Shown here: one piece after another, positions 36,095 through 39,514 of the stretch
Numbering within the stretch: position 1 is the stretch's first letter
Layout of the letters: the number at the start of each line of letters is the position of its first letter
Assembly (NCBI GenBank): GCA_963804165.1
Contig: CAWDPO010000030.1
Span: 32,001 to 96,000, forward strand
Source of the DNA: an uncultured delta proteobacterium
Lineage (GTDB): Bacteria; Desulfobacterota; Binatia; UBA9968
DNA length: 64,000 nucleotides
Direction of reading: 5' to 3'
Translations under genes and position numbers: made by a program
Notes under the pieces: model-generated
Told to the model about the DNA's origin: nothing
What the model saw: the letters and a program-made list of their open reading frames with translations, nothing else
The model's database searches: none

Positions 36095-36769
36095 ATGATA
36101 CTCGTATCCTTTGCTCGTCGCCGTGATTCTTATGCTCCCGCTACTCGTCGCGGCCAGGATGCCGTCAAACGCGATGAACATCAGATGCATGGGCTGCACA
36201 ACGATCCGAAGTCTTACATCGGCGCGCTGGAAGATCCCAAGCGCGACGCCTACCAAAAGCCGCACGAAGTTCTGACGGCGTTGAATCTCAAACCGGGCGA
36301 AGTCATCGCCGACATCGGCGCCGGCTCCGGCTACTTCACGTTCCGTCTTGCGCACCACGTCGGCGCCAAAGGAAAAATCTACGCCGTCGATGTGAGCCCC
36401 GACATGATCCGGCACATCAACCGGCGGCATCCGCGAGACTGAAAACAACGAATGTCGTCTCGATCCTCGCCGATCCCGACGATCCACTGCTGCCGGAGCA
36501 ATCGGTCAACCGCTTTTTCTTCAGCAACTCCTGGCACCACATTGAGAACCAGACGAAATATCTTTCGACTGATGAAAAAAATGCTCAAGCCCAAGGGGGA
36601 AGTGGTCATGATCGACTTTCACAAAAAAGAGATGCAGGTCGGCCCGCCGCTGAAAACGAAAATCGCCAGAGAAGATTTAATCAAGCAAATGGAAACGAAC
36701 GGTTTTCGGCTCACCAAAGAACACACGTTTCTGCCCTACCAGTATTTCCTAGTGTTTGCGCCCAAGTGA
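36095..36769 (+). CDS. Class I SAM-dependent methyltransferase with signal-peptide-like N-terminus, frameshifted
   Basis: RDAYQKP, IADIGAGSGYFT, YAVDV, LPYQYFLVF. Confidence 0.85.
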
Positions 36770-36838
36770 AACGTCGGTAATGACTCATCTTGGTCGACCA
36801 TTTGTGCAGAGGCTTTTCAGCAAAAGTCGCAGTAAAAC

Positions 36839-36893
36839 AGATTCTTCGCTGTGCTCAGAATGACGTTCGAGGGGGAGTTGTCATCCTGAACGA
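36839..36893. repeat. REP pair (AGATTCTTCG..GCTCAGAATGAC and GTCATCCTGAACGA), second unit cut by a MITE
   Basis: Near-duplicate of 38342-38390 on the other side of the IS. Confidence 0.8.
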
Positions 36894-37024
36894 CAGACTG
36901 TGTGAAAACTCTATCGGAGCCCTTCGACTAGGCTCAGGGCGAACGGATAAGTACTTTATTTCTAATAAACGCCACCGTTCGTGGTGAGCGAGTCGAACCA
37001 TGAACTGTGTTTTCACACAGTCTG
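36894..37024. mobile_element. 131-bp MITE with perfect 16-bp TIRs CAGACTGTGTGAAAAC
   Basis: 36894-36909 versus GTTTTCACACAGTCTG at 37009-37024; internal CCTTCGAC..GCTCAGG..CGAACGG hairpin. Confidence 0.85.
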
Positions 37025-37030
37025 GGCTCA

Positions 37031-37236
37031 TCTATGAAAGCTTTGTCAAGGTATCTGTTAGTCACATATTGTTTTTTCTTCTCATGGTTTCGAATACACC
37101 AGTACTTATCGTCCGTGGCAAAGCGTACCGGATGTTATAGGACTCATCTATTCGCGGTCTAAAGCGGCAGAGAAAAATGCCACAGGGCTGTCGCAATCAG
37201 AATTCGGGTCGCAGTGGACAGATGAGCCGCGCGCGC
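37031..37236 (-). ncRNA. Candidate bridge RNA / seekRNA in the 3' non-coding end
   Basis: Contains GGCTCA and ATTCTGA (both target strands) and ATAGATGA (donor end plus core). Confidence 0.65.
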
Positions 37237-38274
37237 TTAGCCCTGCGTGGACGACATCGGTTCGCGATAGCTTTCTCCTTTTTTCAACATGAAGAAACTA
37301 GCCTCGGCGAAGTGTCGAGCCACGGCCACAATCGCTTTGAGGTGCCCTCGTCTGGCTTTGACATTTTCATACAGCCGGGCAACGTGTCGGTACTGGCAGC
37401 GCTCGCGGTTGAGCACCGCGCTATTGGAGGCTTCGGTAAAGGCCCACTTCAGATAAAGATTCACATCCTTTCTCACCCGCGCGTAGCGCACCTTGACGAC
37501 ACTGGAGTTCTGCCAAGGTATCAGCTCGGCGTAACTCGCCAGCTGCTGGCTCGCCCAGAGCGCTAGATCGTAAAGATCTCAGCGCAGATCACCACCGCGA
37601 AAATCTCACCCACCCTGGCCCCTCTGCAAATAAGTCGTCTCGGCACAGGGAGCAAAGGCTTGGCGCATTTGGCCTTCAATGGTCTTGAGATTGGCCTGCA
37701 CATGGTCGAGCTCGTCGAGCATCAATCGCAGCGCTTGTTGGGTGTGCGGTGGCAGCTTGGAGCAAAGCTCTTCGATGATCTGTCGGCCCCGCTTGCCAAA
37801 GGCGTCGCTGACGCCGTCGACCTTGAGCCCGTACTTCTCCAGAGTGGCGTGAATACGGTTCTTGAACTGGGTTCTCTGCTTGCTGAGCACCATGCGGGTG
37901 CGCGGCAGCTCGCGGCCATCACGAACCGCAGACGGCGCAATCCACACCGTCGGCAGGGTTCCGACTCTCTGCAAACGATTCATTCCTTTCGCATCGAGCT
38001 TGTCGCTCTTGTTCACGCTGCCGATCATCAGCTTGGCCAGTCGTGCGTTGACCAGTTGCGGCGATCCTTTCCCCGCCTCGATCTCATCGACTACCCAGTA
38101 CCAGTTGCCCACGGTCTCAACCGCCACCGGGGTTCCCGGAATCCACTTGTTGGTGAAGTTCTTAATCGTTCCTCGACTATGCGCCAGTTTACACTCAAAG
38201 AACTTCTGGCCTTGGTCATTTTCTACCCGCGCCCAGGTGTAATGCTTATGAACATCCAATGCGACGTATTCCAT
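37237..38274 (-). pseudogene. IS110 DEDD transposase/recombinase, disrupted near 37560-37610
   Basis: ALDVHK, AVETVG, KSDKLDA, LASYA, YLKWAFTEA, KAIVAVARH; frameshift plus TAG in the PGVG region. Confidence 0.88.
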
Positions 38275-38424
38275 TTGCGATTTCCTCCTCCAGCCGTCAG
38301 TCTATCTACCGACGCTGAGGATTTCATCGCTTTCATATTAATCAGAATGACGCTCGACGGAGTTGTCATCCTGAACGAAGTGAAGGATCTGCTTTCAATT
38401 TCAAATTGAGTGGCTATCGAATCG

Positions 38425-39514
38425 TCACAAATTGTAGAAGTTCATGGCGTTGCCGCTCAGGATGGCGTCCTTGTCGTGGTCGGACAAGTCCGGATGGTCG
38501 ATCAGCTCATTTAGCTCATGCACGGCAGGTCTCGCTGTTAACCTCGTGGGGAAAATCCGAAGAGTACATGAACGGCTCGGCGCCGACCATTTTAACGGCG
38601 GTGGCAAGAAGCGGTTCCCCGCCCTCGCAGCCGACGAAAATTCGCCGCGCCTTAACATGCCGGACGATGTAGTCGCTGACTTTCTCGCCTGGCTGAAGTT
38701 TTAGATAGCTGCCCCTCAGATCGCGCATCACGTGTGACTGGTAGGAGCTGTCGAACCGTTCCAGGCAGAACAAGAACCACGCGACGCCGCCTTCGAGAAA
38801 ACCGAACTTAACCTTCGGATATCTTTCCAGCACGCCGCTAAAAACAATCGACGCCAGCGAAATCATCTGACCGAGCGGATGCCCGATCGCATGCACGGCC
38901 GCGTATGGATCGAGCCCGTCCATACCCATGCCACCGTGCACTCCCCCGTGGATGGCGACACAACAACCCAAATCATTCGCCGCCTCGTAAATGGGAAAGT
39001 AAGTCGGTGTGCCGAGCGGAGGCGCGTGCAAACTGTTCGACGGGATCACCGCGCCGCACATGCCGAGCTCAGTTACTGCCCGGCGCAATTCTTGCGCAGC
39101 GGCTTGCGGATTCAAAATAGGCTGCGGCAACAATGCCAACCCGCGAAAGCGCGGGCTGTATCGGAAATAAGTTTCGCAAAGCCAGTCGTTATATGCGCGC
39201 GCGGCATCGATGGCCCAATCCGGATTGACGATGTTCGACGAACCCACGCCGGACGTTGGGTAAAGCACCGTGCTTTCGAGACCCACCTCGTCCAAAAACG
39301 TCAGCCACTCCTTCGGCCCCACGTGTCGATTAAAAGCGCCCGCGGGCATGTCGACAAGATGAGCCGCGTGCAAGTGATCGAAGGGGGGAAACGGATTGAA
39401 AGGCTGCAAGCGCGCCTTTTCACGATACGCGTCTGGCATATGCGCGATGATCGCCGGCGCATCCTCGGCGACGTGGCCGTCGGCGTCGATGATTCTTCGA
39501 TTTTCTAGAGGCAT
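38425..39514 (-). CDS. Amidohydrolase-2 family protein, frameshift near 38520
   Basis: IIDADGH, ARAYNDWL, IHGG, LEGGVAW, SSDFPH, ILSGNA..FY. Confidence 0.9.

Follow-up and report, generated by a model that had tools for sequence, protein, structure and literature searches.

The 64-kb stretch of DNA analysed here (hereafter the window) belongs to contig C30 of a 46-contig, 7.5-Mb assembly of an uncultured delta proteobacterium, and carries within a hairpin of a host repetitive extragenic palindrome (REP) a 1.3-kb insertion sequence (IS) of the IS110/IS1111 family, on the minus strand at 37029-38344. We conclude, with a probability of about 90%, that it is a decayed, non-autonomous copy of an IS1111-group element whose lineage finds its insertion sites by means of a self-encoded RNA, a seekRNA or bridge RNA, lying after the transposase gene. 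Three observations carry this conclusion: the region after the transposase stop codon has a fold that covaries among relatives, two words in one loop of that fold covary with the target, and a third word covaries with the right end of the element. The mechanism was already described in 2024, and the window element is a clear but ordinary example of it, not a new kind. Positions are those of the window throughout; the element is read on the minus strand, which is the sense of the transposase, and "+ strand" refers to the strand of the window.

Anatomy and family of the element

On the + strand the left junction reads gggc-TCA-tctatgaaagc, with TCA at 37028-37030, and the right junction catattaa-TCA-gaatgac, with TCA at 38342-38344. 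Excision of the element in silico yields GGC-TCA-GAATGAC, and an identical GCTCAGAATGAC is found empty, with a single TG, at 36853-36864. The insertion point is the boundary between stem and loop of the REP hairpin GTC-ATTCT-GAGC...GA-AGAAT-C. Counted with one core, the element is 1314 bp long in the window copy versus 1317 bp in intact siblings, and its ends are conserved among ten full-length or nearly full copies and one fragment, all in the window's genome. The subterminal inverted repeat reaches 14 bp in one relative (L021). Noncoding DNA flanks the transposase gene, the downstream part measuring 206 nt (37031-37236) and the upstream part about 70 nt (38275-38342); the stop codon is at 37237-37239.

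The intact sibling transposase, P0001 (345 aa), contains the DEDD_Tnp_IS110 N-terminal and Transposase_20 C-terminal domains that together mark the IS110 family (PF01548, E 4.8e-13, and PF02371, E 2e-21) and scores 234.9 bits against NF033542, "IS110 family RNA-guided transposase" (cut-off 140). Its C-terminal domain aligns with the structures of IS621 (E 5.8e-12) and ISCro4. Members of the IS1111 group are reported to have a transposase of 330-350 aa with the motif GL-P----S(t)G, subterminal inverted repeats of 7-17 bp and a long downstream noncoding region (PMC11187229). All of these traits are present here: the protein length, the motif (GLVPRENSSG), the inverted repeats, the downstream region, and also the order of the guides described below. 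The window element is a member of the IS1111 group of the IS110 family.

Copies and lineages in the genome

A DNA search of the genome located the element in ten places besides the window. Lineage A, about 97% identical to the window copy, accounts for seven of the places including the window copy itself; of the others, four are complete with flanks, one is ended by a contig edge and one is an internally deleted fragment on contig C22. An intact lineage-A copy lies at G000:C17:220413-221732. Lineage B, which shares about 80% identity with A, occupies four places, one of them with a frameshift. Since the four complete A copies are 0-1 nt apart and the intact B copies 2-4 nt apart, both lineages have moved recently.

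The two lineages occupy different versions of the same REP. On the transposase strand the A copies are flanked by GTCATTC-TG-AGCC/AGCG...GCGAAGAATC (GTCATTT in one of seven) and all four B copies by GTCATGC-TG-AGCA/AACG...GAAGCATC; on the + strand, TCA is accordingly followed by GAATGAC in A copies (AAATGAC in one of 7) and by GCATGAC in 4/4 B copies. No cross-insertions were seen, lineage A lying in GTCATTC-type sites and lineage B, in 4/4 cases, in GTCATGC sites. REP hairpins of the form GTC-ATnCT-loop-AGnAT-C number 137 in the genome (T type, 59; G type, 17; C type, 59), and GTCATTCTGA occurs 92 times against 10.6 expected.

The C22 fragment (G000:C22:28900-29690) has lost the equivalent of 37417-37642, is truncated in its 3' part and retains nothing of the RNA region; its site is AAATGAC, not GAATGAC. 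On contig C20 the frameshifted B copy (G000:C20:85271-86591) and an intact A copy (C20:89974-91290) lie 3.4 kb apart, with the end of the contig falling within the latter. Several contig breaks of the assembly are probably due to IS copies.

A structured RNA after the transposase gene

The RNA was examined across related loci (numbered with the prefix L). Twenty-one were fetched from species genomes with the intact 345-aa P0001 (identity 25-92%; labelled Binatia, Nitrospirota, Chloroflexota, Planctomycetota and others), and for metagenomes, where the protein alignment was used, the best 80 of 550 confirmed loci were fetched. Three loci (L032, L033 and L029; 25-43% identity or fragments), with RNA and ends unfit for simple parsing, were excluded from the counts. 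With a covariance model derived from 15 diverse RNAs, the RNA was located immediately behind the transposase stop in 95/95 loci searched, four of the hits being partial (three at contig ends, one an internal fragment). All ten matches to the model in the window's genome fall inside IS copies, so that the genome yielded no orphan RNA genes.

The consensus fold consists of a 9-bp basal stem, a 4-bp inner stem, an internal loop and a 6-bp apical hairpin, after which come a linker and two further hairpins, 1 and 2, separated by a single-stranded stretch. Compensatory changes occur in 17 of the 26 pairs found by alifold. In a covariation test of 31 pairs, 92.2% of cells were paired and both sides had changed in 18/31; shuffled controls gave 78.8% and 9.2 pairs, with 0/500 reaching the observed values, and structures slid by 1-3 columns were 31-41% paired. 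Minimum-energy folds of 15 relatives add a long-range stem, seen in most of the 15, which would close the predicted RNA: TCGTCC at 37254-37249, still in the coding region, pairs with GGACGA at 37114-37109, some 140 nt downstream. This stem covaries as well, with TCATCA/TGATGA in L022 and AATCCGTCC/GGACGGATT in L031.

Target guides and their covariation with targets

Both target words lie unpaired on opposite sides of the one internal loop. On the minus strand they contain GGCTCA (37228-37223) and ATTCTGA (37203-37197), with 19 nt between them. The 64-kb window has a single match to the pattern GGCTCA-N10-30-ATTCTGA, where 0.05 would be expected from 100 shuffles, 5 of which contained one. By itself this frequency is only suggestive; it is covariation that lifts the guide words above chance. 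The top-strand match lies 5' of the bottom-strand match and the two overlap in the target, the order also reported for IS1111 seekRNAs (PMC11187229).

The two resident lineages provide the simplest comparison. After the stop codon lineage A reads ...GCGCG-CGCGGCTCA-T-GGGTC-CACTGA-GACCC-G-AATTCTGA-TTGCGAC... and lineage B ...GCGCG-TTTCGCTCA-T-GAGCC-AAACAA-GGCTC-G-AATGCTGA-TTGCGAC.... The RNAs differ precisely at the guide positions (ATTCTG vs ATGCTG, and GCGGCTCA vs TTCGCTCA). A single base separates the 3' words, ATTC and ATGC, as it does the targets, GTCATTC and GTCATGC; the 5' words differ where the loops of the REPs differ, and the hairpin between the words shows compensatory changes.

The same correspondence holds among the relatives. 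Junctions were parsed automatically, giving a right junction for 77 of the 95 loci and a left junction for 60, and the count took one locus for each distinct guide (the first met), with the 5' guide restricted to loops ending in CA. The 5' guide agreed with its target at 252/350 positions over 50 types (shuffled mean 118) and the 3' guide, taken as the 4 nt before TG, at 98/100 over 25 types (shuffled mean 44), with 0/20000 permutations as high in either case, although the loci are interrelated and these permutation counts overstate their independence. A smaller, earlier set of loci gave the same outcome. The 3' guides include ATTC, ATGC, ATCC, AACC, AATC, CCTC, ACTC, AAGC, AATG and GGGG, each with a matching left flank. 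Targets that are not REPs also fit: L020/L087, with the target GTGCCTC-TG-AGCAGGC, match the guide GCCTGCTCA at 7/7 positions, L133 matches its guide GGGCCAC at 7/7, and L101, L103 and L104 each match at 6/7.

Much of this bears out a first-pass annotation of the same DNA, which had proposed an IS1111-type element here, a guide RNA downstream of its transposase and a REP as the programmed target. The element and all the words that were named lie where they had been placed, the predicted RNA, with its covarying fold, is present at every locus searched, its target words face each other across an internal loop and vary with the targets, and the other copies in the genome occupy the same REP site. 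The damage noted in the transposase is real and extends to the stems of the RNA. The element had also been credited with a new specificity; this is true in the trivial sense that each lineage of the family has its own target, and does not hold in any further sense.

Proposed recognition of the donor ends

The word ATAGATGA, on the minus strand at 37151-37144, equals the right end of the element plus the core, as had been noticed earlier. The donor 7-mer is identical to the right end in 75/77 loci, across the four variants ATAGATG, AGATATG, AGAGATG and ATACATG. Many IS1111 orthologues are said in PMC11208160 to carry their donor-binding nucleotides in a multiloop, and the multiloop position of the donor word here fits that remark.

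For the left end the picture is less clear. Tentatively, the linker at 37174-37178 may be a second donor guide, one without the core. When, in this clade, bases 3-7 of the linker 5' of hairpin 1 were set against the reverse complement of left-end bases 4-8, the mean agreement was 4.26 of 5 over 27 distinct pairs, and linker and left end were complementary at the main variable position in 18/27 (Fisher p 0.0045, not corrected for relatedness). Distant relatives have a linker with TCA at its end; for the five positions that come next, agreement is 28/55 versus 23.4 when shuffled, with 330/20000 permutations as high. The first-pass annotation had instead taken TAACA (37132-37136 region) for a degenerate second donor guide to the left end, where TAATCA would be expected. 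That the loop of hairpin 2 reads AATCA in L026 and GATCA in L018, the reverse complement of left-end TGATT or TGAT, speaks for this reading. However, we regard it as unlikely: TAACA belongs to a 3-5-nt terminal loop on a conserved stem (CCGAT/ATCGG, CCGA/TCGG or CCG/CGG), the loop stays constant across left-end variants and is of an ACGAA type without CA in distant relatives, and the linker 5' of hairpin 1 is a better candidate, if still a weak one.

The core dinucleotide

The junctions show a dinucleotide core, TG (on the + strand, CA), and no target-site duplication. The base after TG is A in 60/60 left junctions, while the 77 right junctions have A in 53, G in 18, C in 5 and T in 1; being fixed at the left and variable at the right, this third base belongs to the left end of the element, and the core is therefore TG. 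Dinucleotide cores are the rule in the family, with CT for IS621 (PMC11208160) and AG for ISPpu9 (PMC12288879). A core of three nucleotides, TCA (TGA on the transposase strand), which was the earlier proposal and would be a new core length for the family, is very unlikely. TGA does stand at both junctions in each of the 11 copies that the window's genome contains, as well as in the majority of relatives that target REPs, but the apparent 3-nt repeat in the window arises because A follows TG both in the REP target and in the left end of the element. Besides the variable right junctions, L013/L014 argue against it: their junctions read AACC-TG-ATTATT and ATAGA-TG-GATGCC, so that the target has G after TG, and their 5' guide CATCCA pairs with TGGATG. 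Moreover, in the 3' guide the A that follows TG falls within TGATTGCG, an invariant motif.

Table 1. Coordinates of the features of the element and its surroundings in the window
Feature	Position	Strand	Remarks
IS1111-type insertion sequence	37029..38344	-	both 2-nt core copies included; CA (+ strand) at 37029-37030 and 38343-38344
Transposase pseudogene	37237..38274	-	DEDD/RuvC-like N-domain and IS116/IS110/IS902 C-domain; frame broken
Predicted long seekRNA/bridge RNA, ~146 nt	37109..37254	-	closed by the long-range stem; minimum-energy folds
Target-binding arm	37181..37247	-	9-bp basal stem (37247-37239 with 37189-37181) around the stop codon, 4-bp inner stem, internal loop, apical hairpin
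5' target guide, CGCGGCTCA	37223..37231	-	complementary to top strand of core and right target; final CA pairs with core
Apical hairpin of target arm	37204-37222	-	damaged in window copy at 37220, 37221, 37211
3' target guide, ATTC + TG + A	37197..37203	-	identical to top strand of left target and core, so complementary to bottom strand
Second-donor-guide candidate	37174..37178	-	weak; window copy AUUUU, relatives AUAUU or AUAAU; complement of bases 4-8 of the left end, counted from the core
Hairpin 1	37153..37169	-	TGCCGC...GACGGCG in intact copies; damaged in window copy at 37156
Donor guide, AATAGATGA	37144..37152	-	identical to right end plus core; single-stranded between two multiloop hairpins
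Hairpin 2	37128..37143	-	CCGAT-AAC-ATCGG in intact copies; contains TAACA; damaged in window copy at 37139, 37130
Left-end subterminal inverted repeat, 9 bp, TATGAAAGC (transposase strand)	38329..38337	-	5 nt inside core; conserved in all A and B copies and relatives
Right-end subterminal inverted repeat, 9 bp, GCTTTCATA (transposase strand)	37033..37041	-	2 nt inside core
TAATAT, -10-like, left end	38335..38340	-	2 nt after core; partner of right-end TTGACA
TTGACA, -35-like, right end	37044..37049	-	13 nt before core
Empty REP target, lineage A type, GTCATTC-TG-AGC...GAAGAATC (minus strand)	36840..36864	-	sequence
MITE-like repeat, 16-bp terminal inverted repeats	36893..37024	.	abuts right half of target

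Proposed mechanism

In intact siblings, joining of the ends in an excised circle would put TTGACA upstream of TAATAT, with 17 nt between them. The pair, with its 17-nt spacer, is a candidate junction promoter as read from the sequence; we infer this function because junction (Pjunc) promoters are described for ISEc11 and IS621 (PMC11187229; PMC12288879). TTGAC is kept in the right ends of distant relatives. Such a promoter would drive transcription of the transposase gene together with the 3' RNA. The RNA, presumably released by processing as a molecule of about 146 nt with the 5' strand of its closing stem in the coding region, would have two parts, the target arm and the multiloop. In the target arm, the 5' word would pair with TG and up to 7-9 nt of the right target on the top strand, and the 3' word, being identical to 4 nt of the left target plus TG, would address the other side; in the multiloop, AAUAGAUG, between two hairpins, matches the right end plus TG. 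Recombination would then occur at TG, without target duplication, and by analogy with IS621 and ISEc11 it would be carried out by a DEDD/serine recombinase tetramer through a Holliday junction. Lineages A and B would in this way be tuned to the T and G variants of the REP stem.

It is possible, though doubtful as a whole, that more can be read into this arrangement. Lineages A and B may form a natural orthogonal pair that divides the REP family by one stem base, with single-nucleotide discrimination two bases from the core, and that co-diversifies with the REP variants; the left end may at the same time be read by a shifted, core-less 5-nt guide, or by the protein via the inverted repeat, which would make the RNA a bridge-RNA variant with three strong guides.

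Points against RNA-guided insertion, and decay of the window copy

Several observations weigh against our conclusion that an RNA directs this element. Some concern the RNA itself: an Rfam scan of 36500-38800 was empty at E <= 1, the clade lacks a convincing second donor guide, and natural matches of the 5' guide are imperfect, typically 4-6 of 7; the relatedness of the loci, mentioned above, belongs here too. Expression was looked up in 5 RNA-labelled runs containing 5-8% of the sampled words, and contigs of four were compared with an intact sibling; these metatranscriptome contigs align, at 90-97% identity, only to stretches of the transposase gene and in one run to 33 bases of the right-end tip, and cover no part of the seekRNA, which speaks neither for nor against its expression. 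Others concern the window copy. Its transposase frame is broken by two deletions, of 2 bp near 37623 and of 1 bp near 37548, its GL-P----SG motif has changed from the conserved SG to SV, and because of the frameshifts its domain match is limited to the N-terminal DEDD domain. Substitutions in its RNA disrupt three helices (the apical hairpin, hairpin 1 and hairpin 2), and its covariance-model score, 105.9 bits, is the lowest of ten, the intact copies scoring 137.9. With the frame broken, SG lost and three RNA helices disrupted, this copy is predicted to be incapable of moving alone. The guide words and both ends are undamaged.

The damage is unevenly spread. The window copy differs from the consensus of four intact A copies at 48 positions, and 43 of these fall within 37130-37625, a 3' stretch of about 500 nt, leaving 5 in the 5' 720 nt. 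In the 3' stretch a sense-strand G is replaced in 31/43 differences, although G makes up 35% of the bases there (binomial p 7.5e-7). Over the whole window copy the spectrum includes G>T 14 times, G>C 13 times and G>A 5 times, frequently at tandem GG, and the replacing bases are found in no relative. The G-biased changes may stem from the assembly, as an artefact, or from strand-specific damage to, or hypermutation of, G. A recombination event with a diverged copy was considered as the source of the window copy's many changes and rejected, lineage A being the closest there among the fetched relatives.

The idea that the protein alone recognises the shape or sequence of the REP hairpin, with the RNA words as by-products of picked-up target-like sequence and the 3' structure as a terminator or mRNA stabiliser, is barely credible, for while it draws on the structured nature of the REP targets, the metatranscriptome contigs that leave the seekRNA uncovered and the empty Rfam scan, it is opposed by guides that covary also with the unrelated non-REP targets listed above, by words that in every case occupy identical, unpaired positions in the loop of a structure that covaries, and by the requirement for RNA demonstrated experimentally in members of the same family (PMC11187229; PMC11208160).

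The REP family and neighbouring repeats

The loop of the REP beside the window IS has been reduced to AGCC by a repeat resembling a miniature inverted-repeat transposable element (MITE) at 36893-37024. Of 26 matches in a blastn search of the whole genome, roughly 20 were to this MITE-like repeat. It is about 130-170 bp long, has terminal inverted repeats CAGACTGTGTGAAAAC... and is present elsewhere in the genome roughly 20 times more (C45:191222-191361 and C43:316457-316586 are examples). It often lies within the loop of the same REP hairpins, beside ACGA, and the REPs are therefore a landing site common to two unrelated mobile elements.

The REPs also form composite units resembling bacterial interspersed mosaic elements (BIMEs) or REPINs, in which a T-type REP is followed by a spacer of about 14 nt and a C-type REP in the opposite orientation. 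Such units lie in the window at 36840-36892 and 38345-38392, and elsewhere at C9:13885-13944, C3:58856-58914 and C12:24261-24319. No IS lineage of this genome matches the C-type REP, of which there are 59 full copies; relatives with an ATCC guide exist elsewhere (L015, L072 and L058). The REP family GTCATnCTGAGC...GAAGnATC flanks related elements in metagenome-assembled genomes bearing the labels of different phyla (Nitrospirota, Binatia and Chloroflexota) and in many soil metagenome contigs (L013-L026 and L058-L100), an unusually wide spread for a REP family. Where compared, L013, labelled Chloroflexota, is identical in RNA, ends and flanks to L035, from the genus of the window's genome. The window element has no evident effect on neighbouring genes.

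Comparison with known systems

To the RNA-guided recombinases that were reported in 2024 this element contributes a further natural example, and a well-resolved one. Its relatives form a soil-bacterial IS1111 clade with a TG core and offer, as a resource, dozens of naturally reprogrammed pairs of guide and target (among the loci fetched, 50 different 5' guides and 25 different 3' guides). Co-resident lineages whose targets differ in a single base near the core provide a simple test of how well the enzyme discriminates, which is relevant to genome-insertion tools. For annotation of this genome it counts as a pseudogene copy lying within a cluster of REPs. A tblastn search of a plasmid collection found nothing above 33% protein identity, and the clade is therefore a distinct one, although published lists of IS1111 bridge RNAs (2024) may already include relatives. 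Among close relatives of the window's genome, the transposase (E <= 1e-40) is present in only 2/40 other genomes.

ISPpu9 and ISPpu10 of Pseudomonas putida, as described in PMC12288879, are likewise IS110-family elements that insert at one position of a REP, often in clusters of alternately oriented REPs, and recombine at a conserved dinucleotide, AG in their case. Unlike the window element, ISPpu9 is assigned there to the IS110 group and described as having neither inverted repeats nor a junction promoter. Its associated gene, Ssr9, is reported in the same source also as orphan copies, whereas the RNA here was found inside IS copies.

The bridge RNA of IS621, of the IS110 group (Durrant et al. 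2024, PMC11208160; structures 8wt6 etc.), resembles the RNA predicted here in that loop segments including a core dinucleotide address two strands of the target and also the donor, where the likeness is strong for the right end and weak for the left. IS621 is also reported to target a REP, and its C-terminal domain aligns, as given above. The two differ in that the RNA is 3' of the transposase gene here and 5' of it in IS621, the order of the guides is reversed, and the core is TG versus CT. In addition, unlike what is described for IS621, the window element has 9-bp subterminal inverted repeats, a donor word between two multiloop hairpins and a second donor guide that is weak or shifted.

A close likeness is also seen to the IS1111 elements ISEc11, ISPa11, ISKpn4 and ISPst6, for which seekRNAs were described by Siddiquee et al. 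(2024; PMC11187229). They share with the window element's lineage a transposase of 330-350 aa with the GL-P----SG motif, subterminal inverted repeats, a long noncoding region after the transposase gene and overlapping top- and bottom-strand guides in the same order. Natural redirection between relatives, reported there for ISEc11 versus ISXne4, has its counterpart here, as does the circle-junction promoter, in this case a candidate read from sequence. What sets the present elements apart from those in that report is their separate soil-metagenome clade, their REP-hairpin target and their evident donor word. The RNA forms of 145-170 nt and 70-100 nt given in PMC11187229 fit the RNA of 146 nt and the target arm of about 67 nt that we predict here.

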